A DNA stretch of 64,000 bases from Nemertoderma westbladi (GCA_032718475.1 JAUCBJ010008100.1:1-64000), one strand, 5' to 3'; shown: positions 22,705-56,351, numbered from the stretch's first letter. Numbers and translations: made by a program. The notes: generated by a model not told the origin, from the sequence alone.

Positions 22705-23853
22705 TGTTCGCGCTTTTAGACCTTTAGCAGTTTAACCTGCCAATTTTAGGTGTCCTCTTGTTTATAAATCGACTTTAGCCTATAACAATTATTTAATGCA
22801 TATGAAGTAACATTAGCCGAAGCCAGTCTGTGCGCGATCATTCACCCACAGTTAAGGGAGACTGGATTCGGATGCTTTGAAGGGATTGCGGTGCAGACCT
22901 ACGGTATTATTCGATTGATCGTTACTATATAATCTCTGACAATATTATTCACTTTCGGGGAAATATTAACAGTTCCTTTAGGACGTGGCGCTTTAAGTAT
23001 AAAACAGAGTTATGACTTATACTAAACACAACGAGATGGCTACTGATTTTCGTAAATGGCGCATTCTTTAGGAGATGCTTTATTATCTGTCACACTGCTG
23101 CATACGACTTCACACTGCTGCACACTGATCTGCCGACCGTCACTGAATTTGATCATATATAATGAGGATAGCAACTGACACATGTAGGGATTATGAAATA
23201 GCATTTAATGCACACTAAAACCACTGTAATGTAAGTCGCAATTGCTACCGGTAACAGGTCCCTCTTACCTTCAGTAATCAAGAAGATTGGGGTTTTATGA
23301 TTATTTATCGATATTCTCCAAATATAACAACATATCCAACAACATATAACAATTAATAACCGACAGTAAACAGAAGTAAAATAATGCGGTGAAATCAGTT
23401 CAGCAGTTTGAGTTGGGTTGTGACCATTGCAATATGGACTGTTAATAGATTTACGTTCCTATAATCAAAGCCGTCTAATGTTTGGCTAAAGTCTGAAACT
23501 TACAGAAATTTCCAAGCCGATGTTCTGAGGCTCAGGAAAAGGTAAACAAAGACCGTAATGCATTGCGCGGTCTTCCGTAGGCTTCTGTCCAAGATAAAAT
23601 GAAAATCGCTCTGATTGGCTGAGCGAGCTGAATAAAGAGGTTCCACATCGACAGGAAATCAGCTGACAGATTTCGTCATCTGAACTACCATCCTTTAGAG
23701 TATTTGGCGTATTGCGGCATAAAATGGCTTGTTATGTCCGCTAAAACACCTACAGGGTACATTGCGGAGAAAATGGCTTGTTATGTCCGCTAAAACAACT
23801 AAACAGTTCATTGCGGAGAAAAATGACTGGTTATATCCGCAAAAGCTTTTACA
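22705..23853 (-). repeat. 3' LTR of the outer BEL element
   Basis: Direct repeat of 53215-55203 minus the MITE, about 8 substitutions by eye; preceded on the minus strand by PPT-like CTGGGAGCGG (23854-23863); three ~50-bp repeats at 23711-23843. Confidence 0.97.
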
Positions 23854-23960
23854 CCGCTCCCAGAAAATGGGATTTAATTCTATAAAATATAAAAAATCAC
23901 AGTTTCTAAAATATAAAAATACTCTAAACAGTTAGTCTTTCTTACGCGGACGGCGTTTAC

Positions 23961-25523
23961 TCAGTTTTTTGAGGCTAGCAAGAGTCCTTTTCTCTTTGGG
24001 GCAAGCCACTTTACTAGGAAACTATAACTCCTGGGTGAAGGGTGCAATACAATTGCATCGGAAGGTTTAGGATTACGGTCGGTGTATCCGCTGGTCGAGG
24101 TACCCGGTTGATCGATATCAATCTCAGTGGAGCGAGGTCGAACAACCTTCAGAGCGCGTTTCAGTACAGCAGCTCTTACTGGTCCCTGACGAGTCGTTTG
24201 CACAAGAGCGGTAGGTGGACCGTGAGTAGTGAGAAATTTCCTCGGTTTGATGGTTCTTTCTAACTCGCGTTCTCGGGCTCTATATTCATAGGGTCGTCTA
24301 TGAACTTCCTGTAGCTCTGGATGCGAGTTGATGAACAAATTGCCATATTCCGGATCTTGACGAATGAAGTTGATCAAGTTATAGGAATTAAGATCGTTGG
24401 GATTAATGTTCCTGAGATATTTACGAACAAATTTGGTTGAAATACTCTCGCCAACACGCTTCATTAGTTCGTAACTCGGTGTGCGAGATTTTTGTTCAAC
24501 AGACGCGAATAGATAAGGGTGGAATGCATAAACTCCTTCATAGGCACGTCCAGGGTAATAGCGATGACGTGACTCACAATGTAAATCCGCATTCGCTTCC
24601 CAGGCTCTGATGTAGCGTAGGGTAATCATTTCATCTACGCTTTCCAGATCGCGGTTGAAAGGGCAATCAAAACTTCATGTCCTTTAAACTGACAATGATG
24701 GCATTGAGTCATAAATTGGGGGCAGACTGCGAAAATGTGCAAGTTATTGAGTCTACAATACGCACAATAGATCTCCATCGTAGGCTGTTCATGGAAGTAG
24801 GAGCAGGGTACGTTGGAGTCTACAGGGGTGAAATGGTCTCGAGATGCGCATAATCGGCAACGTTTCCTAGAGACATAATTGGCATGCCGATAATCGTACA
24901 CAGTGAGACATTGTGGACCCTGATACCATTCTAGGACGTAGTCGTTGTCACTGCTCCGAGGTGCGGTGGGCTGAATCTCCTCGGATTCTAAGCATATTGG
25001 TTCGTCTTCCAATTGCATAGCTGAGGTAGGTGTGGCTGTCTCCTCAAGCGAACCCAGTGTCTGAACTTCCACGATAGAATAACCCATGGGGATTCGAGGT
25101 CTTTGTATAACAGAGGAATGTAAGTTCTGTATACAAACGTCTTTGAAAATGGCGAATCCAGCGCTGTCTAACTTCTCAGCTGCTGAGTCTCTTAGGCTGA
25201 GCTTGGTCAGAGTGCGGTCCTTGAACTGACTATCAACGTTACGGAACGGAGTCAGAAAGCGGCTGAAGCATTCGAAGCGAATGAATTTATTGTGTTCATC
25301 TGGCTTGGCGAGTTTGGTTCCAAGTATTAAGGGAAGGGCGCGTATAGTACGACTGCACACATCGGCTAGCCAACCAGCAAGTGCGGCGTTTTCAAAGATC
25401 GTGTATATAGCTAAGGAGGGACGAAGTGGAACACTCATGAAGCTATACACGACGCCAGGTGCGGTCAATGGTCCGTCAAAGTATAATCGAGAATAATGAT
25501 CTCCATATACTTGTTGATAGTTG
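23961..25523 (-). pseudogene. Outer element ORF3, C-terminal part (ExoIII-like motif, three CCHC-type knuckles)
   Basis: PLRPSLAIYTIFEN; CRLCASRDH...C, CAYCRLNNLHIFAVC, and CHHCQFKGHEVxDC across a frameshift; ends about 105 nt before the 3' LTR. Confidence 0.75.
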
Positions 25524-25528
25524 ATAGG

Positions 25529-26728
25529 TGTAAAAGCTTTTGCTGAATTGTCCGGTTATTTTTCCTTATTTTTCCCGTAAAATACTCTGTAGTTGGTTTA
25601 CCAGGCATAAAAAGGCCGTGTCCTTGCTGTACTGGTGTTTTAGCGGACATAAAAGCTATTTCTTCTGTATTTGTACTTTAGAGGACATAATCCGTAATTC
25701 CGTGACGTAAAAGCTCGATACTCTTGAAAACAGTGTCGCTACCATGACGACGGCTAGCAGCTGATATTGCCACGTCGACGTTTCTTTGTTTCTTTGTTCT
25801 CTCGTTGTTCAGGTTGACCAATCAGAGCGTTTGTTGTCTCTGTGTTGGAGGTGTATACAGAAACTCAGTAGTTCAGTGTTATGTTTTTGCCCAGAGCCTA
25901 AGAACCGGCTTTTGGCACCTCCGTGTTTTCAGTTTTTAGTCTTACACTAGTAGGCTTAATTATAAGGACATATATCCGTTATCAAACTGATGTCTGATGT
26001 CTGATGTCTGCATACTGCAGTACTGCATACTGTGTAACACTGTGCATACTTTTATATTGTTATACTGCTATTTACTGTCAGTTCTTCATAATATGGTTGA
26101 TGAATTATTATATTTGGAATAACGACAAATAACCCCGAAAACCCAATATTCTTGATATACCGAAGGTAAGAGAGAAAGGTTACAGATAAATGATTGCGAC
26201 CTATGTTGAGTGGTTTGAAGTGAATCTAATGTTATTTGATAGACCCTACATGATTCGGTCCGTGTTCCTTTTATATGTGACTAAAATCAGTGAAGATCGG
26301 CAGATCAGTGTGCAGTATTGTGCAGCATTGTGTATGAGTGAGACTGATAACGAAGCATTTCCTAAAGAATGCGCCATATATGTGAATTCTAACTAAGCCA
26401 TATCGTTGTGAGTAGTTTAAGTCATAACTCTGTTTATATAGATAGAGCGCCACGTCCTAAAGGAACTGTTAATATTTCCCGAAGGTGAATAATATTGTCA
26501 GAGATTATATAATACTGTCAGTCGAATAATACATTAGGCTTACATAGCAATAAAATTAAGCCGTCGAACCCAATCTCCCGGGTATATCCAGCGGGTGAAT
26601 GATCGCGCACAGATTGGTTTCGACTAGTGTAGTGAATTAAATACTTGTCATAGACTAAAGGTGATTTATTATCTAGAAGACATCCTAATTTGGCGGGTTA
26701 AACTGCCAAAGGTCTGAAAGCGCGAACA
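25529..26728 (+). repeat. 5' LTR of the inner element (1200 bp)
   Basis: TGTAAAAGC...GCGCGAACA; differs from the 3' LTR by about 2 substitutions and one 7-bp CATACTG indel. Confidence 0.97.
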
Positions 26729-26739
26729 ATAACGGATAT
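26729..26739 (+). promoter_or_regulatory. Non-tRNA primer-binding site, complementary to LTR 25972-25982 (putative self-priming)
   Basis: ATAACGGATAT immediately after the LTR-terminal CA is the exact reverse complement of ATATCCGTTAT in the LTR; no TGG is present. Confidence 0.7.
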
Positions 26740-27089
26740 TTAGTCTGTATTGCAGTGTAGGCATTAAATACAGTTTAATATTGTTCTGGTAAGAACAATA
26801 ACGGATATTGCTTCTTTATTGCAGTAAGCAATAAAGTTGAAAGTACCGGTCAACCGGTAAACCTGAACAGTCCATCTGTAGGTCAGTAGGACCAACTGCC
26901 AGAACCGGTACTGCCGTATAAGTACATTAGTATTATTCGACTTGATTGTTGTATACCGGTAGGCTGTTTAAGAGATTAGGGACTGTACACCCCTTGTTTC
27001 TTTTGGAGCTTACTTATTTCTGTCAGTTTTATTTGTTAGTAGGCCAGTATTGAACAGAAGGCGTGTAAACCTGATCAGATTGTACAGAC

Positions 27090-27650
27090 GATTGTAGGCT
27101 GAGCTGTTGTCTGATTGCTGTTAAGTCTGAACGAATTGCAGTGTGTGTAGATCATCTGTCCGATTAAGTACGGTTAGGAAGTAGGGGCAGCGAATGCTGT
27201 AAGGTAAACCCCCAACTAAAGAATAAGTCGTACTACTGGGTTAGAACGCATACTCCCTAATCATTTCGGAGTCTGCATGTCCTGTAGTTTATTTAGGCTT
27301 GAGAGTAGTCTGCCATCGTTTAGTCTGTACTTTGTTTGTGTAAGTCTGTACGGGTAGCGTATAATTTTATTTAGATAATTTGTAGGCTGGATAATTGTCT
27401 GGCTGTTATTAGGTCTGAACGGATTGCAGTGTGTGTAGATCACTTGTCCGATTAAGTACGGTTAGGAAGTAGGGGCAGCGAACGCTGTAAGGTAAACCCC
27501 TAACTAAAGAATAAGTCGCACTACTGGGTTAGAGCGCATACTCCCTAATCATTTCGGAGTCTGCATGTCCTGTAGTTTGTTTAGGCTTGATAGTAGTCTG
27601 TCAGTGTTCGGTCTGCATTTTGTTTGAGTAGTTTGTACGCGTAGCGTAAT
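27090..27650 (+). repeat. Tandem duplication of about 288 bp in the inner element 5' leader
   Basis: TTGCAGTGTGTGTAGATCA...GATTAAGTACGGTTAGGAAGTAGGGGCAGCGAA at about 27135 and 27424; single copy in the outer element (about 52650-52930). Confidence 0.9.
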
Positions 27651-28970
27651 ATTTATTATTCAGAGTTTATGCGATTATTCGCAACATTCATATTCCCCAA
27701 GTTTGTTCCTACAGTAATTGTGTTTGTTATACATACCGTTATAGTTAAATTAACCCCGGTACTACACGGGCTGCTTGGCGTAGGTAAAGACTGGTGATTT
27801 TGTGCACCGGTCACTCCAGCAGATGCCATGGTTCTTTTAGCTGTTCAAGTATAGGTAACTACTGATTATCTGTTGTACAAGTACTCGTACCTAATTTAGG
27901 GTTTAGTGTACAGTGCTTTCCGAAAGTAATTATTGTAGGCATTATATTTGTGTTGTAAAGTGGTTGATAGGCACCTTCGATTAGCTCTATTAACTTCTAG
28001 GTAGGAACACTCCGTGATACATAACGTAGAACCTATAGCGATATGGCCATAGGTCGTCAGGCGGTGGTATTTTCCTATCTAGACAGCGCAGTGTATTTAA
28101 TACTACGTATTATTTCAAATACCGCAGTACCCTGTCCGTTGTAATAACCAGATTTCTAACCCTTTGTTAGGCTGGTTTGTAGACTTCTTGTAAAATTACC
28201 CTAAAAATTCGTATTTTGTGTTTTTGTAAATTTTTATGTTTATTTAGAGATTGTAATCCCAACCCGAATTGTACGTAATTTGTAGTATTAAGTAACTTAG
28301 GTAAATTAGAATTATTTGTTTTAGTGTCCTATAAGTAACACTTCACTGAAAGCGCACCGCTTTGTGTAGTGATTACTCCCCAGAAATAATAACATTTATT
28401 TCAACATTGACAAAACCCGTTAAACGGGTATATATATATTATAAATCAACTCAAACGATTTATAAATAGTAGGCCTGCCATAAAACCATTAGGTCTCAAT
28501 ATCAGTTGGACTACTGTTCAAATAACGGTAATAAAGTAAGTAAAGTAACAAAGTAACCCTAAAGTTCAGAAATTCAATTATTTAAAATAATTGATATACC
28601 GGTATTTACGATAGGCCTATTATCTTTATTTCTGTAAATTTAGGCTGAAATTATACCGGTACTTGTAATTAATTCTAGTCCAGAATTATATATACTACAA
28701 ATTGTAAGCTGTATACCGGTATTCCCGATAGGCCTATTATATATTTATATATATTTGTGCTAAAATTATACCGGTATTCTGAGATAAACCTAGTCTGTAA
28801 TAATACTTATATATACTATAAGCATACCGGTATTCTAATATATTATATATATATCACGCTACACTGAGTAGCAGTATCGGTAATTAATTACTAGGCTAGC
28901 AGTTAATACTGAATTACTAGACTTGCTTAGACTGTAATATAGCAGTAGGCATTCAACTGTACAAACAAAA

Positions 28971-31900
28971 ATGTCTGACACAAAACGGGCACTGTCAGAT
29001 AGTCTTTTGGAAGGTGTTAGAATCAGCCTTAGACTTGGACAGGGTCTTGAAAGGAAGATGGCAGAGGCAATGGCAACAGCAGAAGCGAAAAGAAAGGCGG
29101 CAGAGGCAATGGCAACAGTAGAAGCGGAAAGAAAGATAGAGACACCTGTACTCCCAGAACCTGCCTATAAATTCCCTTTGTACAGTACTAAACTACCTGT
29201 GCCCAGTAGGACTGTTCCCGAGTCCGAACCCATCCTGGACGCCGAGCGAGATATTAAGAATTTATCGCCCGTCGTCTCTCGCTCGCCCGCTACAACGTTG
29301 GCGACTCCCGCTTCGGCGGTTGAGTGGGTAGCTGAGGGACGACGGGAGATGCGTCTCCTGCTCGAGCAGCTGAGGGAACACTGTTTGTGCTCCTCTCAGC
29401 AGGTCCGGGAAATGGAAGAGACTGTTCAGCAGCTCAAGGGAACAGTAAGGGAAAGTAGGTTAGAGTTGCAAAAGGTGCAGCAAAGTATCGCGTTAGAATG
29501 CGATAAATTAGTGAACATACAAAGGGGTATAACACCACCCCCTGTAACAATGTGTCAACCCGTTAGGTCTGAAGTATTTCATGCGCAAGGTGTGGAGCCT
29601 ACACGCATCTATACTGCTAGTGAAGTAGAAACTCCTATAGTAAACCCTATTCAGGGTAATTATAAACCTGTTGATAATAATATTCCATATAGACCTGATC
29701 ATAATCCGAGAAATTTATATACCGATAATTCTATATTCAATTATACGATGGCTCAAGAAAGTTTTACGCGTCAAATGGCTAGAACCGAAGCCCGGCAAGC
29801 GGTAAAGGTGGGAGAGATCGTCAAGTTCAATGGAGATGAGATGAAATGGTTACCTTTTAATGAATATTATAAAGATAACATACAGAACTCTGTACTATCT
29901 AACGGAGAGAAACTTAGATTCCTCATCGAATGTTTGGAAGGACCTCCCAAGTCAATGGCGTTAAAATTTATTGGACATCCAGATGGATTAAGACAAGTTT
30001 GGGATACACTAAACATCAGGTATGGTAATAGGACTAACATAGCTAGGTATTTATATGCGAAATTAATGGCGCCCCGAAAGTTTCTTAGCAGCGGGATTAT
30101 AGAGTTTTCCGATGAGATTCAGGAGATCTGTAGACAACTAGATTGGTTAGGTAAGTCTCATGAATACCAGAATTCTATGGTTGTAGGAGCCTTAGCATCT
30201 ACTTTGCCCAAGGGTGGAGTAGGTACACGCTGGGACAAGAAGGTGTTATATATGATGGAACAACAACAACGAGACCCTACCATGGCTGATCTCATGTCAT
30301 TCCTGGATAGCGAGGTGAAATTACAGCTCATAAAGCAGTCCAGAGAGAAGACAGCGGAAAGTAAGGTAAGTGAGAAACCCGTTTCTAGGAGAAGGGTAAC
30401 ACCAGTATGTTATACCGACGACGGTGAAAGCCAAACTTCTCAAGGAGAGGACAGCGGGAAAGACACTGACAGATCTTATTATGTCAATAAAATGCCTAAA
30501 GATCAGGTAAGTAAATCCGAGTCTCGACCCAATGACAGAAGGGAACCGGTACAAAAAACCCTTCCTACGTCTCCTAAAAGAATTCAGGTGAGAAAGCCCG
30601 AGGAAAGAACAAGTGTGCACCACATAGCACAGGTTAAAGTAAGTAACATCAAGCCGAAATGTGTGCTGTGCTACGGGCCCCACCGTTTAAATGTGTGTGA
30701 TAAATTCCTGAGGAAATCACTTGAGGATAGACGTGAAGTCATGTGGGATAAGCGGTTGTGTTATATTTGCCTCAGACGAGGACACCAACGGCGAACCTGT
30801 AACTCCGACGCAAGGTGTGCAAAGTGCGGCGCAAAACATCATATCTTGTTGCACATGGAATTCGAACGAAACAGCCCGAGTCAGGTAAGTGAGTCCGAAC
30901 TACATGTCCAATTCAGTGATGTGAACGACACTGATCAATCTGAGATGGAAGGATTCTATACGGACGAGTTCTCCGACCAAAACGAATCCTGTTACCTAAT
31001 AAACACCACCGCAGTGTATCGAGCACTCGTGTATGAGAAAGACACAGACAGCGACCTTACCTTAACTACTTCCGATCAACAACCATCTTGGAAAGCGCCA
31101 ACTTCCAATATAGGAATCCGAGAATTTCCTGTAGTCCAGTTACGGGTCCACGGACCTCAGAAGAGCTATATAGTGAACGCCCTCCTGGACTCCGGTAGCA
31201 CAGGAACATTCATCGATAGGGAACTAGCCGAAGTCATCTTTGCTGGACAACCCAAGTTCCGAACCAAGCTAAACCTGTCAGGGATCATGCAGGTTTGGAA
31301 TTCTACTGTAGCTGCCGACTATTATATATGTGAGTTGTCCACCCCCCAAGACGAACTAGGAGAACATAGCATAAGGTCAGTGAAAATGGTGGCTATAAAG
31401 AACTTCGCTACTACTCAAGCAGACCTTTATAATTGGGACGAGGATGAGAGCATCCAACATCTTAACATACCTCGATTCCAGACTGATTATCCTGGAGTGC
31501 AAATACTCATCGGCCAAAACGCGCATGAGGCGCTGGAGACATTAGAGAAACGGCCTGCTCAACCGCAGCCACTACAGACCTATGCGGTAAGAACTAGAGT
31601 AGGTTGGTACCTTACTGGACCTTCCCGTAGAACGCTCAGGGAAAGAATGCTTCAAGATCGCGTCTGCCAGGTGAGTGAATGGGAAGATGATACTAGTGAG
31701 GGAGACGACCCAACTGAGGGAACACCACACTCCTCAGATAATGACAATCTTAGCTCCAATGTAGATCAATGGAAATATTGCCCCAAGAAGTTTAATCCAA
31801 CGGACATCGCTTCCAGAGGAGCAACTCCTCAAGAACTGACAGATACTACAGACCGATTAGGTGAACCCGACTTCCTGAGTAAGGAGAATGAATGGCCTCC

Positions 31901-32399
31901 CCATCTTACTCCGACTGAGATTATACCAGCCAAGGGAGCGGAGAAAGTCGAACCTGAAACCCGGACGTGTGGATCGGAGTTATTTGAACCCGGGATAGAT
32001 CTGTCGGTATTACATGTTGCCAGGGACGACGCTGTGGATCTGGGCCTCCCCACCGCGAGTGGATCCTTCATGAAGATCAGAGAGAGCGATTGGAGCTCTG
32101 GAACATCAGACGTCTCGCAGGGACTCTCACCTCTCCTGCAGAGAGCGACGGACCACTATAGCTCCTGGAATCGGCTTTGTGACGCCGTCATATACTTTGA
32201 GCGATGTTTCTATCGTCACTATTCCAGGACGAAGAGGAAACCTGGAATTGTATTCAGGATGCAGCGACTCAATCACCCAGTCGGTCGTTTGTGTTTATCG
32301 GAAGGGAATGGAGGACTCTCCGGAAACTGTGGAAGGCAAGATTCTCTTCCCACGACCACCTCCCTAATCCTTCAAACATCTAGGGACTCCATAACGTAA
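28971..32399 (+). CDS. Gag-protease polyprotein of the non-autonomous BEL element, fused in frame to RNase H-region and integrase C-terminal remnants
   Basis: Uninterrupted 1142 aa: FNGDEMKWLPF (DUF1759-like), CVLCYGPHRLNVC/CYICLRRGHQRRTC/CAKCGAKHHILLH, ALLDSGSTGTF, QWKYCPKKFNPTDIASRG, HPVGRLCL; no YxDD and no integrase core. Confidence 0.9.
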   Translation: MSDTKRALSDSLLEGVRISLRLGQGLERKMAEAMATAEAKRKAAEAMATVEAERKIETPVLPEPAYKFPLYSTKLPVPSRTVPESEPILDAERDIKNLSPVVSRSPATTLATPASAVEWVAEGRREMRLLLEQLREHCLCSSQQVREMEETVQQLKGTVRESRLELQKVQQSIALECDKLVNIQRGITPPPVTMCQPVRSEVFHAQGVEPTRIYTASEVETPIVNPIQGNYKPVDNNIPYRPDHNPRNLYTDNSIFNYTMAQESFTRQMARTEARQAVKVGEIVKFNGDEMKWLPFNEYYKDNIQNSVLSNGEKLRFLIECLEGPPKSMALKFIGHPDGLRQVWDTLNIRYGNRTNIARYLYAKLMAPRKFLSSGIIEFSDEIQEICRQLDWLGKSHEYQNSMVVGALASTLPKGGVGTRWDKKVLYMMEQQQRDPTMADLMSFLDSEVKLQLIKQSREKTAESKVSEKPVSRRRVTPVCYTDDGESQTSQGEDSGKDTDRSYYVNKMPKDQVSKSESRPNDRREPVQKTLPTSPKRIQVRKPEERTSVHHIAQVKVSNIKPKCVLCYGPHRLNVCDKFLRKSLEDRREVMWDKRLCYICLRRGHQRRTCNSDARCAKCGAKHHILLHMEFERNSPSQVSESELHVQFSDVNDTDQSEMEGFYTDEFSDQNESCYLINTTAVYRALVYEKDTDSDLTLTTSDQQPSWKAPTSNIGIREFPVVQLRVHGPQKSYIVNALLDSGSTGTFIDRELAEVIFAGQPKFRTKLNLSGIMQVWNSTVAADYYICELSTPQDELGEHSIRSVKMVAIKNFATTQADLYNWDEDESIQHLNIPRFQTDYPGVQILIGQNAHEALETLEKRPAQPQPLQTYAVRTRVGWYLTGPSRRTLRERMLQDRVCQVSEWEDDTSEGDDPTEGTPHSSDNDNLSSNVDQWKYCPKKFNPTDIASRGATPQELTDTTDRLGEPDFLSKENEWPPHLTPTEIIPAKGAEKVEPETRTCGSELFEPGIDLSVLHVARDDAVDLGLPTASGSFMKIRESDWSSGTSDVSQGLSPLLQRATDHYSSWNRLCDAVIYFERCFYRHYSRTKRKPGIVFRMQRLNHPVGRLCLSEGNGGLSGNCGRQDSLPTTTSLILQTSRDSIT

Positions 32400-34052
32400 C
32401 AACATATGGAGTGGGTGTGTGACTCTATTATTTTATATTATTTTATTATTTTTATATTTCTGTATGTATTACTATGTAATTTTATTATAATCGTTTTCTT
32501 TAATTTTATTCAGTAGAATGTTATTTTAGCGATTATTTAGTAGATTAGTGCAATATATATTCGCGTTTATTACTTAATTACGTATATATTATATTTAATG
32601 CGACGGCAAGAAATAATTCTTTTCCTCTTTCCTTACTGCCCGTATCATATTATAAATACGTGACTACAGTAAGATGAAATGTCCGTACTTATTAAAGTAC
32701 AATAAAGCCACTACTATATTCAAGTATTATTGGTAGGCAGAGTATTAGGAATGCAAAGTTCAGATCCTCGTGTCTCGGCTAAACCAAGCTCTGGGTAGAC
32801 CTTGGAAACGACTTGCCTCTTCACACTGACATTGCTTCGTGCGATATTGCTCTCATACCGTATATTAAATAATACATATAGTAGCGTGATGTCCCTTTAA
32901 CAGTAGCGTATAACGCAAAATAAATCTGTTAAACCCTTTGACCATCTGTAATTCTAGTCGATTAAGATATCGTGGCACCCACCGATATACTTGAAAGACA
33001 AATTATAGAATCAGTGGTTAACGTCCCCAGACAAGTTCTGGAATAAATCGGTGCCCATCTCAAATATTAATTATTTAATATTTGCAAATCTAATAAGTCA
33101 AAATCTGTAAAATTCAGATCCTTCAACAATTCTAGTCAATTAAGATATCGTAGCATTTACCGATATTCTTAAAAAAGACAATTGTCATAGAATTAAGGAT
33201 CTTGTGTCCCTAGACATGTTCTAGAATCAAAATATGTCCATTTAATTATCAAATAATAAAATTTCAGGGAATAAATTTAAATTCATGCCTTTTAATGAAT
33301 TTAATAAATTGCCATTTTTACGCAATTTATAAAGTTCCCAAAATTCCATTAATTAATAGATCAAGGGAGCGGAGATTTATCTTATTATGCATATGAGTGT
33401 GCGAAAGTCTCCCAAACATAGTCAATAGCCGATAAAATTCATAAAGTCATGTATAAAACAGAACATTGACTATTAAAGAATACTATTAAATAACATCCCA
33501 GATCTGTATGCATTGGAATCACCCTAATTCTACCGCTAGCTTTGCATAATGTCACCATAGCAACAACCACGCTAGAATTAGAATTGAGTTAAAAGAACAA
33601 TAGAAAGCTTGTCCCATTGAATAGCATAGGGAATAAATAGCGCACTGCTAGTATCCAAGGATACATAATAATACAGTGACATTCTGGAAGGCATTGACTA
33701 ACGGACAAATGGCCCGAATGTGTGTAGTTGTGACCAGTTGTGTGGTATTTGTGAGTTTATAGGTGAATGTTACTGCTAAAGTGTGTTTACAGTAGCTAGT
33801 CGCAATCGTAAAAGTAACCTAACTCTCCAAGGAAAACCTGAAGTACATCTAAGCCTTTGGGACGGACAGTTGAGTGACTTGTGCCGGTTGTCGTTGTCAT
33901 TGTGCGGCTACGTCGTTGGCGAAAGTGCAGCGGCGACGACACATCGGCGCTGAGGATCTCGTACTGTCCGGGGGTTGATTGGGGTAGGCAGCGACGCCCG
34001 CTCGCCTAAATGTGGACTCATTATAATATGGATAAACTCATATATAGCAGAT

Positions 34053-35543
34053 ATGACGGAGTTGATAGAAGATGGTCTTGGTATCGGGGAGCGATATACT
34101 CTACTTTTACAAGCGTTTGTTGATAGCTTAATATGCGGCGACGTTAGTCCAACTGCTGCGGATGACGATGGTCGTTATATCGAACCGCCAATGTCCCAAG
34201 AGCAGCTCACGCGTGAGTTGGACTATAGAAAATTCGCTGCTTGATATACGCAGCGTAATGGTACGTATATGGACTTCTTAACTACTGGTCATCCTATCGA
34301 CCTACACGATACGAACGATATAGACACCAAAGGGAAATGGTTTATTTAAATATCATACCCAGCGGAAGCGGAACGATAAATTGAGACTCGAACACGAAAA
34401 TTCTATTCGAAACCGACTTGAAAGTGCAGATGTCGAAATGCCGGATAAACGCAGCGACTCCACCAAATACCTGGAATTCTTGAGAGAAACCTATCTCGAT
34501 ATTACCAGTCAACAGAATCTAGAAACTCGATATCCTCAAGGTATACATCATGACCGCATGGTAGAACTCAAACGGCTCTATTCCACTATGATGTATCTTA
34601 CCGCTGATCGATCGCTACCTGTTGTACCGGATAGCTTCGAACGGATGGAGGAATATTGTAAGCTGGAGAAAGATCACTCGCGTTTCCCCTACAAGACGTA
34701 CGTTTTTGGGTATTATTACGGTAAATGCCCTAGACCCAGCCAATAAACGGAAAGACATAAACATCCACGGAAACGTTGTGTTAAACACAGTTGTGTTCGT
34801 TATATTTACTGGAGTTTCGAGCGAAACTTGTTTGACGTATCACCTATGCTCACTCGGCTCTAACGATCCTAGAGTAAACCTACGATCAGAGTCCCGGAAT
34901 ACTCGGTCAAACCTCCTCATTCCTTAGTTGGACCTCAGACCTGCGATCCTGGTGGTGTCGCGGATCCTCGCGGACTGTATTCACTGTTCAAAGATCTAGT
35001 GCTACCCTAACAATTAATCGGTAACACTCCGACAGTGATTTCTAGCTAGCCGCCCATCTTACCTAGCCGGATTGTGACGCGGACACCTAATATCACTATC
35101 CAACCGTATGGTCGTTCCTGTTTAACGCGATACAACCCCTCATCAAGGTGAAGGAGAGCGTTGTACGAAACGAGTTAAACGCTATTCTATAAAGATCAAA
35201 AAGAAACCTGCGTTTGTTCAGATAAACGTAAGTTATAACAGTAAGTCCAATCGATAAACGAATTGGCCTTATCTCAATTCGATTGGGAAATCCAGAATCT
35301 CTAAGAAGTTATCGAACTTGGACGATCCTATTCTCTGCGAGAGTTTTTGGATGAACGTATCCAGCTACGAGCGGAGGAAAATCAGCTCGAGGAGAAGCAT
35401 ATCGAAACGGCGGATACCCCGACCATAATCCTACACCTTCTGATGCAATCATATTGCACCCTTCACCCAGGATTTATAGCCCTCCTAGTAAAGTGGCTCC
35501 CCCAAAGAGAAAAGGACTCTTGCTAGCCTCAAGAAACTGCGTA
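34053..35543 (+). pseudogene. Deleted and decayed ORF3 of the inner element
   Basis: Homologous to outer 39698-38150, then jumps near 35405 to the last ~45 codons (PSDAI.LHPSPR); many stops; exonuclease and knuckles absent. Confidence 0.85.
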
Positions 35544-35646
35544 AACACCGTCCGCGCAAAGAAACTAACTGTTTAGAGTATCTTTATGTTTTAGAAACTG
35601 TGATTTTTATATTTTATAGACTGAAAATCCCATTTTCTGGGAGCGG

Positions 35647-36853
35647 TGTAAAAGCTTTTGCTGAATTGTCCGGTTATTTTTCCTTATTTTTCCCGTAAAA
35701 TACTCTGTAGTTGGTTTACCAGGCATAAAAAGGCCGTGTCCTTGCTGTACTGGTGTTTTAGCAGACATAAAAGCTATTTCTTCTGTATTTGTACTTTAGA
35801 GGACATAATCCGTAATTCCGTGACGTAAAAGCTCGATACTCTTGAAAACAGTGTCGCTACCATGATGACGGCTAGCAGCTGATATTGCCACGTCGACGTT
35901 TCTTTGTTTCTTTGTTCTCTCGTTGTTCAGGTTGACCAATCAGAGCGTTTGTTGTCTCTGTGTTGGAGGTGTATACAGAAACTCAGTAGTTCAGTGTTAT
36001 GTTTTTGCCCAGAGCCTAAGAACCGGCTTTTGGCACCTCCGTGTTTTCAGTTTTTAGTCTTACACTAGTAGGCTTAATTATAAGGACATATATCCGTTAT
36101 CAAACTGATGTCTGATGTCTGATGTCTGCATACTGCATACTGCAGTACTGCATACTGTGTAACACTGTGCATACTTTTATATTGTTATACTGCTATTTAC
36201 TGTCAGTTCTTCATAATATGGTTGATGAATTATTATATTTGGAATAACGACAAATAACCCCGAAAACCCAATATTCTTGATATACCGAAGGTAAGAGAGA
36301 AAGGTTACAGATAAATGATTGCGACCTATGTTGAGTGGTTTGAAGTGAATCTAATGTTATTTGATAGACCCTACATGATTCGGTCCGTGTTCCTTTTATA
36401 TGTGACTAAAATCAGTGAAGATCGGCAGATCAGTGTGCAGTATTGTGCAGCATTGTGTATGAGTGAGACTGATAACGAAGCATTTCCTAAAGAATGCGCC
36501 ATATATGTGAATTCTAACTAAGCCATATCGTTGTGAGTAGTTTAAGTCATAACTCTGTTTATATAGATAGAGCGCCACGTCCTAAAGGAACTGTTAATAT
36601 TTCCCGAAGGTGAATAATATTGTCAGAGATTATATAATACTGTCAGTCGAATAATACATTAGGCTTACATAGCAATAAAATTAAGCCGTCGAACCCAATC
36701 TCCCGGGTATATCCAGCGGGTGAATGATCGCGCACAGATTGGTTTCGACTAGTGTAGTGAATTAAATACTTGTCATAGACTAAAGGTGATTTATTATCTA
36801 GAAGACATCCTAATTTGGCGGGTTAAACTGCCAAAGGTCTGAAAGCGCGAACA
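35647..36853 (+). repeat. 3' LTR of the inner element (1207 bp)
   Basis: Near-identical to 25529-26728; preceded by PPT-like CTGGGAGCGG. Confidence 0.97.
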
Positions 36854-36858
36854 ATAGG

Positions 36859-39698
36859 GTTTCCAACTTTGAAATTCTATCCGTATTCTTGAAAGGCAAG
36901 ATGTCCGATGGAAGTTCGTTGTACTTTATTGATGCCGCTGGGTGTATTGGCATACATAGTTCAGTAGAAACCTCGGCCTTCTGCCCAGGGAGTAATCAAC
37001 TGAGTGTCTACAAAAGGATAAGGGATATTCTCCATGTTCCTAAAGTCGTTTTGGAGATCTCCATAAACAGCTGAGCCGATTTTAAGGATTCTTTAGTTAA
37101 ACAACATCTCGAGCACAGGCTGGGGTAACATCGATCCATCGATACCCATGGCCGGTTTGCGCTCGGTGTCAGTGACGTAACGCTGCGCGAGTTCGAATTG
37201 TCCATGTCGGAGTTTCTTTTGTATCTCGGTGAGGGTCTCAAAAGAATAATCAATCACGTCGGAACACGCTCGAGTAAACACGTGGGTAGAACCAGCTAGT
37301 CCTCGTATATGTATCATGCGCGTAGTTCCCAGTTCTCCAACCGGAACGCTACCTTCGTTATCGTAAGTGACAACTCCATACATTTCGATAACGTTAAGAG
37401 TTTCATTCCACTCTTTAGTGGCGTTTTCTAGGGTCATTCCCACTGGATGCCACAAGGTGGCGCATTCGCTAGCGTTAGGTAGATCCCTATACTTCAGATA
37501 CTGTGTAGTATACGTCTCTACATCTCCATATCGTTGTATTCTCTCCTCCTCGAATAACACGTCGAGATTCCAGTGGACTAATCGAGTTTTGATAAATCCA
37601 TCGAGATTATACGGAGGTATTATATCCTTCTCTATTCTGGAAACATTGTAGGGTTTTTGGAATGAGTTTACTTTCACTAACTGATCCAGATGTTTCTGCA
37701 GTTGTTCGAGTTCGACAAGATCGAGAGGATTTATTAGTGGTAGAAACCTTAGACTATGTGTAGGATCTTCCGGTTTTACCATGTAATATTGAGTTAGATT
37801 GACATAATAAGGGTGATCTTTGATCCCATAAAACGAGTTCGGTAAAGGTCTAGTGCGTATGTTTACCTCATGTACCATACGACGGACAAGATCCGCTCGA
37901 TTGTCCGGAGGTTCAACGAGTATACCATCGACACGAGCGGCCTCGATTGGCAGACGCTGTAACATTGGAGCGTCGGCGATAAGATCTCGAGATCTTAGGT
38001 TGATATCAACCGGTTGGGGTTGTACCATTGCGAAGAGTTTGTCTCTGAAATGGGGAACCATCGATGGATGAATGATGGTTTTGGAGTAGAGATCCATCAT
38101 AAGGATTTGAGCTTCGGGTTGGGCTAAAGCTCTTTCTTCTCTTTCATCCATTTCGATGTGTTTCTCCTCGAGCTGATTTTCCTCTGCTTGTCGTTGTAAG
38201 CGTTTGTCTAAAAACTCTTGTAGAGAATAGGTTCGTCTAAGTTCGATCGATACTTCCTCGAGGTTCTGGATTTCTCGATCGAACTGGGGTAAGGCCAACT
38301 CCTTCACCGCTTGGACTTGTTGCTGCAATTTGCGTTTCTCTAAACAATCATAAATTCCTTTTCCTATCTTCTGTCGATTACCCACGAGTTGAGTAAAGGG
38401 CAACTTTGTGCCTGGTTGGCGACAGTATACAAGGTAACATCAACCTTCAACTCATTGTGCACTGGCCGCATTCTTAATTATCACTGAAAAACTGGAAAAC
38501 TGATAAACTGGATACTTATTGAGTTGCTGCAATTTGCGTTTCTCTAAACAATCATAAGTTCCTTTTCCTATCTTCTGTCGAATAGCGTCTAACGCGTTTC
38601 GTACAACGCTCTCCTCGACTTCGGTGACGGGTTGTATCGGGGTTAACCCAGGACGATTGTATGGGTTGAACGGCGATATTAGATGTCCGCGTCCCAATCC
38701 GGATAAGTAGGATGGGCGAATATCTAGCGAGCCCACTACCGGAGTGCCACTGATTAATTGTTCGGGTAACACAAGATCTTTGAACAGTGAATACAGTTCA
38801 GGAGGATCCGTTATACTATTAGGATCAAGAGTTTGAGGTCTCACTAGGGAATGAGGAGGTCTGACCGAGTATTCCGGAACTCTGATCATGGGTTTATTTA
38901 AAGATCGTTTGAGTCGAGCGATCGTAGGTGACACGTCGAACAAGTTTCGCTCGAAACTCCCGTAAGTATAGCGAGTAAAACTGTGTTTAGCGCAACGTCT
39001 CCGCGGATGTTTATGTCTTTCCGTTTGTTGGTTGGGTCTAGGGCATTCATCACAATAATACCAAAGACGCACATCCTGTAGAGGAAACGCGGGTGACCAT
39101 TCTCCAGTTTAACAATATTCCTCCATCTGTTCGAAGCTATCCGGGACAACAGGTAGCGGTCGATCGGCGGTAAGATACATCATAGTGAAATAGAGCCGTT
39201 TGAGTTCTATCATAGGATCATGATGTATACCTTGAGGATATCGAGTTTCTAGATTTTGTAGGCTGGCAATATTGAGATATGTTTCTCTCAATAATTCCAG
39301 ATATTCGTTGAAGTCGCTGCGTTTATCCGGCTCTTCAACGTCTTCTCTTTCGAGTCGGTTTCGAATAGAATTCTCGTGTTCGATTATCAGTTTATCGTTC
39401 TGACTCCGCTGGGTATGATATTTAAAGAGAACCATTTCCCTTTCGGTGTCTACATCGTCCGTATCATGTAAATTGATAGGATGGCCAGTAGTTAAGAAGT
39501 CCATATACGTACCATTACGATGCGTATAGTGAGCGGTGAATTTTCTATAGTCCAATTCACGCGTGAGTTGTTCCTTGGACATTGGCGGTTCGATATAACG
39601 GCCATCGTCCTCCGTAGTATTAAACTATCAACAAATGCTTGCAATGGTAGGGTATATCGCTCCCTGATACCAAGATCATCTTCTATCAACTCAGTCAT
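36859..39698 (-). pseudogene. Outer element ORF3, N-terminal part (Cys/His motif, coiled coil, DEDDy exonuclease ExoI/ExoII)
   Basis: VVTYDNEG (ExoI DxE), RMIHIRGLAGSTHVF, LPQPVLEMLFN*RILKIGSAVYGDL...FVDTQ (ExoII), read through the stop at 37093. Confidence 0.75.
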
Positions 39699-41514
39699 AG
39701 CTGCTATATGAGTTTATCAAGATTATAATTAATTATAATTAGGCTAGCGGGCGTCGCTGCCTACCCCTCACTGCCCCTGGACAGCGCAAGATCCTCAGCG
39801 CCGATGTACTGTTGTCACGGTGCTTATCGCCAATGTAGTAGCTACACAACGACAACAATAACCAGTGCGAGTCACTCCACTGTCCGTCCCAAGGGCTTAG
39901 ATTTACTTCAGGTTCTCACTGCAGAGGTAGGGCTACTTTCACAACTGCGACTGGCTACTCTGTAAACACACTTTAGAAGCAACATTCACCTATAAACGCA
40001 CAAATTCCACACAACTGTCACAAATTGTACACATTCGGGCCATTTGTCCGTTAGTCAAGTGCCTTCCAGAATGCCACGTTATTATTATGTATCCTTGGAT
40101 ACTAGCAGTGCACTATTTATTCCTTATGCTATTCAATGGGGCAAGCTTTCTATTGTTCTTTTAACTCGCTTCTAATTCTAGCGTGGTTGTTGCTATGGTG
40201 AGATTATGGAAAGCTAGCAGTAGAATTAGGGTAATTCTCATGCATACAGATCTGGGATGCTATTTAATAGTAATTCTTTAATTGTCAATATTCCCCCTTA
40301 TACATGATGTTATGAATTTTATCGGCTATTAGAGATTCTCGCACACTAATATACTTAATAGGGTGAATCTCCGCTCCCATGATCTATTAATTAATGGAAT
40401 TTTGGGAATGTTATAAATTGTATAAAATAAGAATTTATCAAATTCATGAGAGGATATGAATTTAAAATTATTCCCATAAATTTTATTATTTAATATTAAA
40501 TAGGCACAATTTTATTCCAGAGCATGTCTGGGAACTAGGATCCTTGATTCTAGGAAATTTGTCCTTTTAAGAGTATCGGTAAGTGCTACGATATCTTAAT
40601 CGACTAGAATTTTAAAGGATCTAAATTTTAACAGATTTTGATTTATAGATTTTCTCGGTTTACAAACTCCTTAGAATTTATTTGTATGCATTTACTCTAT
40701 TATAACATTTGTTTTAATATATTTTTATAAATATTAACTATGTAATATTTATGATGGGCACCGGTTTATTCCAGAACATGTCTGGGGACGTTAACCATTG
40801 ATTCTAGAATTTTGTCTTTCAAGTATATCGGTAGGTGCCACGATATCTTAATCGACTAGAATTACAGATGGTCAAAGGGTTTAACAGATTTATTTTGCGT
40901 TTTACGCTACTGTTAAAGGGACATCACGCTACTATATGTATTATTTAATATACGGTATGAGAGCAATATTGCAAGAAGCAATGTCAGTGAGAAGAGGCAA
41001 GTCGTTTCCAAGGTCTACCCAGAGCTTGGTTTAGCCGAGACACGAGGATCTGAACTTTGCATTCCTTATACTCTACTTACCAATGATACTTGAGTATAGT
41101 AGGAGCTTTATTGTACTTTAATAAGTATGGATATTTCATCTTACTGTAGTCACGCATTTATAATATGATACGGACAGTAAGGAAAGAGAAAATAATTATT
41201 TCTCGCCGTTATGCTAAATACATATAATATAAGTAGTTAAATAATAAACGCGAATATATATTGCTCTAATTCTACTAAATAATCGCTAAAATAACATTCT
41301 ACTAAATAAAATTAAAGAAAACGATTATAATAAAATTATATAATAATACATACATAAATATAAAAATAATAACCAGCTAAAGACCCTCAATACTTTATTT
41401 TTTTATCATCTTTACACTATGCTGCCGCTGGTGAATGCCTACCACTTCATCCGTTCGAAAAATAATAAAAAACGAATATAAAATAATATAGTCATACACC
41501 CACTCCAGACGCTG

Positions 41515-43035
41515 TTACGTTGGGGAGTCCCTAGATGTTTGTTGGATTAGGGAGGTGGTCGTGGGAAGAGTATCTTGCCTTCCATAGTTTCCGGACAGTT
41601 CTCTGTCTCTTTCCAGTAAACATAAACGACCAACTGGGCGATTGAGCTGCTGTGTTTCGAACACAATTCCAGGTTTCTTAAAGTTACGTCGCATGACGAC
41701 GAGTTCTACCGATCGCACCAAACCATCATCTGAGATATGAGTCTCGATGATACGACCTGTCTGCCACCGCTTACGTGGAAGATCTGATTCCACAATAAGG
41801 ACCATGTCTCCGGCGCTGACGTTTTCTTGCTGCGCAAACCACTTGGTTCGAAGTTGTAGCGTAGGCAGATAATGTTTTTCGAAATGGTCAGCGAAACGAC
41901 GGGATAATAACTGCATAAGTTGCCAAGTTTGTCGGCAGTATTCGTCTCCGTCCGTGATTTCCGATCGTGGGAGCATGGCTATAGGTTTCTTCAGTAGGAA
42001 ATGCGCGGGTGTTAGCGCTTCCAGGGAGTCGGGACTCGATGAGACTGGCATAAGCGGTCTTTCGTTAAGATCGGCGGCGATTTCTTCCATTAACGTCCGC
42101 AAAAGTTCGTCGGTGAGATACGCGCGGCATGGCACTATAAAGTGAAATGCGGTCTTCACGCTTCTTATTATTCTCTCCCAACTTCCTCCCCACCAAGGGG
42201 CATCGGCGGCATTGAATGTCCAGCTAGATGCTGTTACCCTTAGCTGATCGTCCACCTGTCTTTGGTTCCAATCTCTAACATAAGCCTTGATCTCATTATT
42301 GGCGCCAATGAAGTTCGTCCCCTTATCAGATCTCATCGTGTTGATAGTTTCAAAGCGAGCGATCTGTCGGCATAGACTCAGTATGAAGCTGTTGGTAGAT
42401 AGATCGTTCACCATATCTAAATGGATCGCTCTAAAAGTCATACAGACAAAGATGACACACCATCGCTTGACTATAGTCCTGGCACGATATACTTCAATAG
42501 GGCCAAATAAATCCACACCGGTATTAGTAAAGGGTGGTTCATAGAAGCTTACTCGTTCCCTAGGTAATTCTGCCTCTCGCTGTGTTAAAGGCCTACTGAA
42601 TGCTTTCCTACAGGGTATACAGTTCCTAAGAACTTGGTTCAGAGCTCTACGGGGTTTATGAAAATAATAGCGAGTTCGAATTTCGCTAAGAACTCGTTCT
42701 CTACCAGCATGGTAAAGCTTACTGTGAACATCTACCATCATCTTGATTTGTATTTCAAGATTTCTAATGAGTATGGGAAACTTAGTGTCAAAGGATAATG
42801 GAGCATTAGTTAGTCTCCCTCCAACGCGTATTAACCCATCTATCATTGTGCTAGAGAAACGATCCCTTAAGCGCATCTGTGGATTTCTCAAAAACAGGAA
42901 ATACTTATCGGAATCTTCATAGCATTGCAGGAGTCTCAGTATCTGCTTATTGGTTTCTTCATGCTCCTGGTAACTGATCTTCTCCATCAGAAAACCTATC
43001 TGATATTTTATATTTGGGAAGATCTTTAATAGCAT
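41515..43035 (-). pseudogene. Integrase region of outer BEL pol
   Basis: RVGGRL, H-x4-H...CIPC zinc finger, TGVDLFGP, RAIHLD, SDKGTNF, APWWGGSWERIIRSVK, LNERPL, LTPAHFL. Confidence 0.95.
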
Positions 43036-45061
43036 GGACCTGCGCAGATGTCAGTGGAGCGGTATCACTAGCGATCTTCGTCCTGGAGTAGTGATGATGA
43101 AAACATCGCTTTAAATACACGACGACCTTACAAAGCCGATTCCAGGAGCTATAGTGGTTTATCACTCTCTGCAAGAGAGGTGAGAGTCCCTGCGAGACGT
43201 CTGGTGTTCCAGATTTCCAGTCTCTCTCTCTGATTTCCACAACAGACTTATTTGTGGCGGGGGAGTTTGGATCCAAAGCGTCGTCTCCGGAAATGTGTAA
43301 TACAGACAGATCTATCACGGGTTTAAATAACTTCGATTTACTCGTCCGGGTTTTAGGTTTGACTTTCTCCGCTCCCTTGGCTTGTCTAATCTCAGCCGTG
43401 GTAAGATGAGGAGGCCATTCATCTTCTTCTTTACTTAGGAAGTCGGGTCCACCTAACCAGTCCAGAGTATCTATCAGTTCTTGAGGAGTTGCTCCTCTGG
43501 AGGTGATGTCGGCTGGATTAATCGTCCCAGGGCAATGTCTCCATTGATCTACACTAGTGCGACTAAGTATAATGGCTACTCTGTTGGTAACGAAGACGCT
43601 GAACTGACAGACTTCATTGGTTATATACTCCAAAACAAGTAAAGCATCAGTCCAATAGACAGTTTTCTCCAGTGGATAGTCGATCTGTTCTATTACATTC
43701 CGGCCGATGGCTGTAGCGTATAGAGCCGCATTTAACTCCGCTCGAGGAACTCGTAGTTTGTTGTTTATCAAGGCCTTAGAGGTAACCAAGGCAACCTTAA
43801 TTCCATCCGGAGTTTCAACCCTCAGGTAGGCTACTATACCTATTCCCATGTCACTGGCGTCTCCAAACACATGGAGTTGATAGGAATACGTGGGGAGAAT
43901 GTGACCAAAATAAGAACGGGAAATCGTAAAGTTCTCGATGGATGGCAGAGAATCTTCCCATTTCATCCACTTCTTTAGAAGTTCTCCCTTAAGTGGATCG
44001 TCCCACGAGTGGTTTTCAAGCCATATTTGTTAAACTAAACTCTGAGCAACCAATATAACTGGGCTAATAAATCCCAATGGATCGAAATAAGTGCTCAGGA
44101 TACTTAGACAAATCCGTTTTGTTCGAACTGGATTATCTCGCTGCTTTAGCTGGAAAAACAGGATATCTCTCTCCGTGTCCCATTTCAAACCAAGTGTCTT
44201 GGTTTCTGGAAAATCGTCCTTGATTAGGTCTAGATCTTTAACTCCTCGGTCTTCTACCGGGATCGATTCCAGAAACTCACGGGAGTTACTTGTGAATTTA
44301 GTTAGTCGAAAACCACCGCGTTTCAAGCACTCTACCGTTCCCTTGGTAACATCAATGGCTTCTTCCACCGATGGGAGGGACTTTAAATTATCGTCCATGT
44401 ATATATCCCGTTTGATGTTGTCGATAACCGCTTTAGAGAAGGCGTCTCGGTTGTCATCAGCAGTGGTGCGCACTACTGAACAGGCGTTCGAGGGGCTCGA
44501 GATGATCCCGAAAGCCTGGATGGTCATCCAGTACTCCACAGGTTTTTGGTTGAGGTCTCCTTCAGGCCACCACAGAAATTGTAGGCTGTCTCGATCCCTA
44601 TCCAGCGCCTTAACTTGTAAGAACATGCCTTCTATATCCGAGGTGAAGGCGATCGAATATTGCTGTAATCTTAAGAGTATTCCCAACAAGGATTGGAGTA
44701 AGTTGGGTCCCGGCAACAACTTGGAGTTAAGGGATTGGCCCATGTAAAGGGCAGAGCCGTCAAATACTACCTGAACTTCGTTGGGTTTACCGGGTTTGGG
44801 AACGTAATGATGAGTTAGATAATACGTTCTCTCAGTTATGGGTGTTTCTTCCGGTACTCGCTCCGCGTATCCCCTATCGATGAATTTCTTCAGCTGGGTC
44901 TTGTACATCTCTTTAGCTGAAGCATTTGCCGTGAGGCGTCGATGTAGTTGCGCGATTCTCTTCTCCGCCAAGGGTCGGTTATTTATAAAGTTGGGTTGTC
45001 GCTTTCGGAATGGCAGACCAATCTCATACCTCCCTTGATTTTTAAGGAAACGTGTAGTCAT
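42959..45061 (-). pseudogene. RT and Pao-type RNase H region of outer BEL pol
   Basis: VVFDGSA, GPNLL, DIEGMFLQV, FGIISSP, YMDD, KTLGLKW, FDPLG, LHVFGDAS, PRAEL, YWTD, NPADITSRG; stop at 44030. Confidence 0.95.
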
Positions 45062-45130
45062 TTCCTGGATCTGCTTGGCTCTTTCCTCTTCGACCGATAC
45101 TGCTTTGTCGTAGGAATTAGGCTCTACAGC

Positions 45131-53203: not shown

Positions 53204-53213
53204 AAATCTATTA
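53204..53213 (-). promoter_or_regulatory. Non-tRNA primer-binding site of the outer element, complementary to LTR 54793-54802
   Basis: Element-sense TAATAGATTT, 1 nt after the LTR end, pairs with element-sense AAATCTATTA in the LTR. Confidence 0.7.
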
Positions 53214-53214
53214 T

Positions 53215-56310: not shown

Positions 56311-56351
56311 TAACTAAATCGAAACTCCGCGTTAAAAAGTGTAAATAATAT

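Follow-up and report, generated by a model that had tools for sequence, protein, structure and literature searches.

A disrupted third gene with an RNase D-like core in a nested pair of BEL/Pao retrotransposons from Nemertoderma westbladi

The 64-kb stretch of Nemertoderma westbladi DNA considered here (JAUCBJ010008100.1; hereafter the window) holds two related BEL/Pao elements, one nested in the other, whose parts are listed in Table 1. Downstream of gag-pol, in the position that in related elements is taken by env or is empty, the outer element carries a third open reading frame (ORF3), which is the subject of this report. It is a real gene of about 1,400 codons, now broken, and in profile comparisons a core of 44 residues around its ExoII motif matches bacterial RNase D beyond chance. 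Taking all lines of evidence together, we regard its assignment to the DEDDy/RNase D type of nuclease domain as very probable.

The outer element is identified as a BEL/Pao long terminal repeat (LTR) retrotransposon by its BEL-specific domain order, its LTRs, and its short target duplication. Its gag-pol yields Pfam matches to DUF1759, Peptidase_A17, Integrase_H2C2, and DUF5641 in BEL order, and a weak one to RVT_1 (expectation [E] value 0.003). The best database relatives of the integrase do not exceed 41% identity; those with a name are mostly from fish, echinoderms, and other marine animals; the 120 relatives listed all carry PF05380 or PF03564, plus PF18701. The two LTRs differ at 8 of 1,149 nucleotides (nt), and the element, less its insertions, measures about 18.5 kb. 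The noncoding spacer between pol and ORF3 is 88% identical to that of the nested copy across 1,586 columns. Several further observations concern the same element. Its gag region (45824-49716) is of unusual length, with an Ala/Glu-rich repeat of 33 nt at 48290-48557, and the leader before gag is about 1.9 kb once its insertion is discounted. That insertion, 1.6 kb at 50204-51780 and missing in the nested copy, has TTAA-flanked inverted ends and internal 163-nt repeats, and is presumably piggyBac-like. The 834-nt element within the 5' LTR (53301-54134) carries inverted repeats of about 30 nt at its ends, with what looks like an AATT duplication. The outer element itself is inserted in a DUF4371-bearing gene (E value 9e-9; 21808-22719 and from 55204), which we take to be a hAT-type transposase.

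A preliminary description of this DNA had reported coding remnants in the env position, and the two parts of ORF3, 39698-36854 and 25528-23961, do join in register on either side of the nested element and its 5-bp target duplication. All motifs quoted in that description are present, in the quoted order. Over four segments, of 365, 498, 280, and 228 codons, the coding frame contains 1, 3, 0, and 0 stops (4 in 1,371 codons), and each of the other five frames has 10 to 31 stops per segment. The joining of the remnants in that description is borne out, with lesions that it had overlooked: a frameshift near 39625, a 204-nt insertion, and four stops (39111, 37095, 36963, and 36879), to which a frameshift near 24680 and the nested element are to be added. 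All four stops lie outside the 204-nt insertion, and the last three fall inside the nuclease-like region. On the minus strand, a CxxC motif lies near 39054 and a likely coiled coil, judged by eye, near 38340-38130. The three CCHC-like knuckles reported before are found at about 24655-24859; they are irregular, two reading C-x2-C-x4-H-x9-C and C-x2-C-x5-H-x4-C and the third being split by the frameshift near 24680. As had also been stated, there is no indication of a membrane segment in ORF3, the highest 19-residue hydropathy being 1.19. The first 25 codons are acidic by eye. To judge by this hydropathy maximum and the acidic N terminus, ORF3 lacks the signal peptide and membrane anchor of an env protein or viral fusogen and does not resemble one.

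The ratio of nonsynonymous to synonymous substitution rates (dN/dS), a comparison proposed along with the preliminary description, could be estimated between the outer and nested copies over the part of ORF3 common to both, which lies outside the nuclease-like domain. For stretches of 356 and 69 codons it comes to 0.38 and 0.17, respectively, compared with 0.87 to 1.48 in the wrong frames and with 0.26 and 0.16 in gag; Fisher tests give P values of 3e-8 and 4e-6. Because the ratio is below 1 between the copies, and in the coding frame only, ORF3 was selected in the lineage, and its N-terminal half was under past purifying selection. Such selection between subfamilies about 17% apart largely refutes, for the N-terminal half, the notion that ORF3 is passively captured host DNA that never functioned for the element. 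That both copies are broken, and that none of 79 related BEL loci carries a similar gene, would suit passive capture; the common start codon, the common 3' end, the conserved spacer, and the fact that no introns were seen speak against it, and we regard it as scarcely credible.

The nested copy shares about 82 to 86% identity with the outer one in coding parts and has lost most of pol. Its ORF3 is missing the middle but still has its start codon, the N-terminal half, and the codons at the very end. With only 2 differences in 1,200 between its LTRs, the nested copy moved more recently and without the nuclease domain in cis; a helper may have supplied that domain in trans. The outer copy, too, was probably already defective when it was copied. 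Its gag-pol and ORF3 together contain seven in-frame stops, as against about 1.8 expected from the LTR divergence (P 0.003, on the assumption that 4.2% of substitutions are nonsense), and at least six frameshifts. We infer that both copies were moved by a helper in trans. Since the outer copy was probably defective before copying, single ORF3 residues may have drifted.

The evidence for the RNase D likeness comes from several kinds of comparison. For the 201 residues that precede the nested insertion, the top two matches among 18,950 NCBIfam models are both RNase D (E values 0.025 and 0.065). We then built local profiles from bacterial genomes, taking as members 29 RNase D proteins, 40 short NrnC-like proteins, and 18 PolA domains; they were picked by Pfam PF01612, regardless of any resemblance to the query. 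The RNase D profile matches 44 residues without a gap (P value 8e-8), with the ExoII Asp (37059) and the PxPxxDTQ strand in alignment, and the PolA-exonuclease and NrnC-like profiles give no match to ORF3 (P 0.08 to 0.2). Two tiles over the core score 18.1 and 14.6 bits with the RNase D profile, the best of the other 1,270 in the window reaching 4.0; none of 3,000 shuffles attains the score (best shuffle, 6.5 bits). A profile of 20 further RNase D proteins picks out the same place (P 2e-5). When 401 bacterial genomes were searched in six frames, matches at an E value of 0.5 or better came from 88 of them, and the 15 best loci comprised 14 RNase D genes and 1 without a family, the best RNase D loci showing about 25 to 39% identity over 44 to 120 residues. 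These matches are weak singly (E 0.002 to 0.03 per genome), and it is their agreement that constitutes the evidence. Among the bacterial RNase D, NrnC-like, and PolA profiles only RNase D thus matches, and eukaryotic relatives such as WRN, Mut-7, EXD, or Rrp6 could be closer. A 20-sequence bacterial profile gives no HRDC signal after the nuclease region (1,815 of 3,000 shuffles do as well), although a diverged HRDC domain may be present. The DEDDy-type domain that the preliminary description placed in a non-env ORF3 is hence borne out for the ExoII core, and not for ExoI or ExoIII.

Searches for homologues of ORF3 were less rewarding. It has no Pfam matches; a word-indexed protein search was empty both for the nuclease region (821 candidates) and for the knuckle part (1,441 candidates); HMMER, run against 1.84 billion representatives, gave nothing at an E value of 0.001; and the PDB sequences gave six unrelated matches (E 0.4 to 1.7). 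Nothing related was found in viral contigs, metagenome contigs, plasmids, or phages, nor a usable match for the knuckle part in the ESM Atlas, and these searches found no eukaryotic homologue. PHROGs offered three weak matches, one of them an exonuclease at E 0.069, which we did not use as evidence. The unguided single-sequence fold, with a predicted local distance difference test (pLDDT) score of 30, is uninformative and has no Foldseek or VIA-align match. The structure prediction suggested earlier was also made under the guidance of an RNase D alignment: the guided model has core parts at pLDDT 75 to 87 and matches 1yt3 at E 0.004, and being circular it was rejected as evidence.

It is from these empty searches of Pfam, the 1.84 billion representatives, and the PDB sequences that one might argue for a chance local match, with ORF3 being a real accessory gene that contains some other domain. 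The unguided folding without a DEDD match and an hhalign probability of 0.2% (with a single-sequence query) point the same way, and the NCBIfam E value of 0.025 is weak given four queries in each of several libraries. Against this, the superfamily and the register had been predicted before any search, the alignment is ungapped with the catalytic Asp and the PxPxxDTQ strand in place, and RNase D is the top family in two unbiased searches. We accordingly regard a chance match as quite improbable.

On either side of the core the match fades, and the active site can be laid out in two ways. ExoI candidate A, the VVTYDNEG favored by the preliminary description, has the best ExoI block score (7.1 bits), and its D-x-E ranks third of 1,448 in a mixed-family motif scan; it sits 101 residues before ExoII, as against 57 in Escherichia coli RNase D. 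Candidate B, about 45 residues further on, places its Glu 56 residues before the ExoII Asp, as against 55 in the E. coli enzyme. The compact register that B implies is picked by motif chaining, hhalign, MAFFT, and pairwise phmmer. In motif chaining the whole chain is reached by none of 500 shuffles, a result driven by ExoII. The four pairwise phmmer alignments are collinear from near the RNase D N terminus, with a gap at the ExoI Asp; all four set SFETLTEI on the ExoI strand, and two of the four set RMIHIRGL on the RNase D N terminus. The two strands that precede the ExoII helix fit at the canonical distance, a fit equalled by 24 of 5,000 shuffles, or by 142 of 5,000 with the compact ExoI added. 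An exact D-T-E at 37170 was rejected as ExoI, since its distance of 37 residues to ExoII leaves no room for three strands. Of 3,000 shuffles scored with two independent profiles, 824 and 375 do as well as the ExoI half, and 686 and 1,599 do as well as the ExoIII half. The assignments of VVTYDNEG as ExoI and YTIFE as ExoIII are, on these counts, not upheld. In the ExoIII region there are two PL-x6-Y motifs 14 residues apart (5.1 and 4.2 bits), the residue at +4 being Ser in the first and Glu in the second. No candidate in this copy has the Asp of Y-x3-D at +4, which may not hold family-wide as the copy is decayed, and no register of this ORF3 gives the standard four acids.

An active 3'-5' exonuclease, using the D-x-E (37362 and 37356), the ExoII Asp, and the ExoIII Glu (25393) to trim the 3' ends of element or small RNAs, is one way to read these motifs. 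The three acidic motifs stand in the right order, the D-x-E of candidate A scores and ranks as described, and ExoIII shows its P-L-x6-Y spacing (4.2 bits). The single-sequence model, although unreliable, shows three strands after a helix in this region, and the ORF3s of rotifer elements are said to keep acidic residues as a DEED variant (PMC5408684, in excerpt). The difficulties are that neither flank beats shuffles, that candidate A and YTIFE together require two large insertions of about 42 to 44 residues each, that four alignment methods prefer the compact register, and that another PL-x6-Y, 14 residues earlier, scores equally well and has no acid. We hold an active enzyme of this kind to be conceivable, though rather doubtful.

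As the best explanation, albeit one to which we would give somewhat less than even confidence, we propose that ORF3 is an RNA-binding accessory protein with a disabled or nonstandard active site, acting on the element's own RNA. By analogy with the rotifer ORF3s, which are stated to be expressed from a spliced message (PMC5408684, in excerpt), its expression would rely on a message of its own, probably a spliced one. Single-stranded RNA would be gripped jointly by the nuclease-like fold and the knuckles, as in the trypanosome RNase D discussed below. Because we read the metal-binding set as incomplete, given the gap at the ExoI Asp in four pairwise alignments and the want of an ExoIII Asp at +4, the protein might shield, chaperone, or sort element RNA rather than cut it; protection against host 3' trimming or small-RNA processing is an example of such a role, the target RNA being a guess. 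It would act in trans, as proposed because both copies moved while defective. Several points weigh against this view. The selection was measured outside the nuclease-like domain, only 44 residues are significantly matched, and the reference profiles are all bacterial. Candidate A has an ExoI block score of 7.1 bits as against -1.1 for the compact B, which alone is not significant (375 of 3,000 shuffles). The independent 20-sequence profile puts its best N-terminal fragment on the D-x-E of candidate A, and the strands beside ExoII also fit that candidate given an insertion after the first strand. Moreover, the copy is decayed, so that single residues are unreliable.

The primer-binding sites of the two copies raise a separate question. 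The preliminary description had called the site a non-tRNA one, and rightly so: both sites lack a TGG start, and each is complementary to a segment about 400 to 450 nt into its own LTR. Between the copies three positions co-change on both pairing sides, and cross-pairing fails. ARAGORN finds no tRNA genes in the window. The pattern is a Tf1-like self-priming signature in both copies and supports self-priming. An acceptor-like AG is seen just upstream of each LTR pairing segment.

It had further been suggested that ORF3 and this priming form one coupled system, the nuclease making or trimming the RNA primer. Both copies have no tRNA-type site and pair with their own LTRs, with the three co-changing positions, and a 3'-5' exonuclease might give a self-primer the defined 3' end that it would need. 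We examined 79 BEL loci from metagenomes, a weak baseline with integrases only 33 to 40% identical, and none matched ORF3 or the DEDDy profiles; viral contigs held no BEL loci. At least 1.5 kb follows the integrase in 21 of the 79, and the nine longest downstream ORFs are gag, in circularly permuted assemblies. All four complete two-LTR elements are without ORF3 and without a TGG start, a clear LTR complement being seen in only one. In this one (L162; LTR 972-1390, primer site from 1391), a BEL element that is complete at about 7.1 kb, the integrase match and the 3' LTR are separated by 163 nt, without an ORF3; the element's 15-nt primer complement is formed across the GT-AG junction of an LTR intron (0 of 200 shuffles). 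The others (L156, L163, and L166), whose LTR limits are approximate, have non-TGG primer sites and no clear LTR complement (8 nt in L166, 6 of 200 shuffles). Because L162 has the self-priming signature and no third gene, self-priming can exist without ORF3. The nested copy, furthermore, moved without the nuclease domain in cis. In Tf1 the primer is reportedly released by the element's own RNase H, which likewise counts against the coupled system. An obligate coupling is thus not supported, and we consider a single coupled system very improbable; ORF3 may have a helper role in this BEL family. A broader scenario, which we think unlikely as a whole, is a self-priming lineage of 18.5-kb elements in which a captured RNase D was turned into a noncutting RNA-binding module, joined with the knuckles and supplied in trans as an RNA shield.

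Elsewhere in the window, two uninterrupted genes for AMP-binding enzymes of about 700 codons each (13737-15854 and 61101-63203) have about 90% DNA likeness at their 5' ends; we assume them to resemble long-chain acyl-CoA ligases. There are tandem arrays at 368-1350 (21 to 24 nt), 11199-11670 (20 nt), and 56316-57787 (36 nt), and a Cys/His-rich ATG-start ORF of 305 codons at 3440-4357 has no Pfam matches.

Table 1. Coordinates of the two BEL/Pao elements and of ORF3, counted from the first nucleotide of the window
Feature	Position	Strand	Remarks
Outer BEL element	55203..22705	-	Paired LTRs TG...CA; 5-bp target duplication ATGCC
5' LTR, outer element	53215..55203	-	TG...CA; contains 834-nt inverted-repeat insertion, ~53301-54134
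3' LTR, outer element	22705..23853	-	8 mismatches in 1,149 nt to the 5' LTR
gag-pol, BEL/Pao type	41515..49716	-	Broken by 3 stops and 4 frameshifts; Pfam domains
Spacer between pol and ORF3	39699..41514	-	1.8 kb, noncoding; splice-acceptor-like candidates near 39990 and 39960 (from sequence)
ORF3, 5' part	36854..39698	-	ATG at 39698; CxxC, likely coiled coil, N-terminal and middle RNase D-like domain
204-nt insertion in ORF3	38377..38580	-	~55-nt duplication plus foreign DNA with 2 stops; absent from nested copy
ExoI candidate A	37354..37377	-	D-x-E at 37362 and 37356; requires ~44-residue insertion
ExoI candidate B (compact)	37222..37253	-	Glu at 37227, no Asp two residues earlier; canonical distance to ExoII
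RNase D-like core	36991..37122	-	Helix, strand, ExoII Asp (codon 37059), PxPxxDTQ strand (Asp 37008)
ORF3, 3' part	23961..25528	-	ExoIII candidates, 3 CCHC-like knuckles, C-terminal tail
ExoIII candidates	Tyr at 25507, 25447, 25405	-	None with Asp at +4
Nested relative	25529..36853	+	Internally deleted; paired LTRs TG...CA at 25529-26728 and 35647-36853
ORF3 remnant of nested copy	~34053-35560	+	Without nuclease-like domain, without knuckles
Primer-binding site, outer copy	53197..53214	-	No TGG start; non-tRNA type
LTR segment complementary to outer primer site	54793..54802	-	Exact over 10 nt, as are 26 of 2,000 shuffled LTRs; candidate self-primer
Nested LTR segment complementary to its own primer site (26729-26739)	25972..25982	+	11 nt exact; 4 of 2,000 shuffles

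Among known systems, the host element is closest to the Belpaoviridae as defined by the International Committee on Taxonomy of Viruses (4.2 to 10 kb, an optional env-like gene, and an 18-nt primer site for tRNA-Arg or tRNA-Gly; PMC8742986), with which it shares the set and order of gag-pol domains, LTRs of about 1.2 kb, and the position of the third gene. It differs in its length of about 18.5 kb without insertions, nearly twice as long, in its non-env third gene, and in having no tRNA-type site. In the literature searched, which did not extend to the older nematode Cer papers, we found no DEDDy third gene in BEL/Pao, the rotifer paper being the only one that fits; the excerpts of PMC3118150 and PMC13524379 contain no mention of an exonuclease, and the sole mention in that of PMC11662393 concerns LINE endonucleases. 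The concept of a DEDDy third gene has already been published for rotifers, and what appears to be new here is its occurrence in BEL/Pao.

The rotifer precedent invoked in the preliminary description is genuine: RNase D-like DEDDy ORF3s are described in the bdelloid elements Juno1/2 and Vesta2/5, and also in Athena/Terminon, their function being untested (PMC5408684, in excerpt, as throughout this paragraph). Like the ORF3s of Juno and Vesta, the present one follows pol as a third gene of its own that is not env; it too has an RNase D-type domain and an altered acidic motif, and no membrane segment. However, its host element has BEL/Pao markers, which the excerpt does not report for the rotifer clades, and the protein measures about 1,400 residues and has three knuckles and probably a coiled coil, a feature said to be absent from the rotifer DEDDy ORFs. 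Compared by description, the rotifer motif is DEED with the invariant residues intact, whereas here there is no full set with an ExoIII Asp.

In layout, to which the likeness is confined, ORF3 also recalls the trypanosome RNase D, TbRND, in which several CCHC fingers stand after the RNase D-type domain where HRDC domains would otherwise be (PMC7797062, in excerpt; PDB 7c42 and 7c45). That protein combines an exonuclease domain with four CCHC fingers, and the finger domain is reported to enhance binding and cleavage. TbRND is, however, an active cellular enzyme of 390 residues with four regular fingers directly after the domain, whereas in ORF3 the three knuckles are irregular and come about 170 residues after it, the N-terminal extension measures 700 residues, and catalysis is doubtful. 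Bacterial RNase D (TIGR01388; E. coli 1yt3) is the best family for the ExoII helix-strand and the PxPxxDTQ strand; it differs in that ExoI and ExoIII are not significantly matched in ORF3, which has no HRDC signal either.

If ORF3 holds up, yet another separate branch of LTR elements will have taken up the same enzyme fold as cargo, and the nuclease-plus-CCHC layout of the trypanosome RNase D will have been found inside a retrotransposon. It would hint that animal retrotransposons repeatedly need either control over RNA 3' ends or a means of binding RNA to withstand host silencing; ORF3 also supplies a single domain to assay. The weight of these suggestions is limited by the state of the two copies, both broken, by the size of the firmly assigned core (44 residues), and by the failure of the priming link in its one test. 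A model for a nuclease fold serving as an RNA-binding module in small-RNA and transport pathways is provided by EXD1, Maelstrom, and Egalitarian, to which we liken ORF3 without sequence comparison. Egalitarian is a DEDD protein that is not known to be active. EXD1 and Maelstrom are named as catalytically dead DEDD proteins in PMC5408684 (in excerpt). These three are host genes, not element genes; should the self-priming lineage outlined above be real, its ORF3 would be the retrotransposon counterpart of host pseudo-nucleases such as EXD1, possibly derived from a bacterial-type RNase D.

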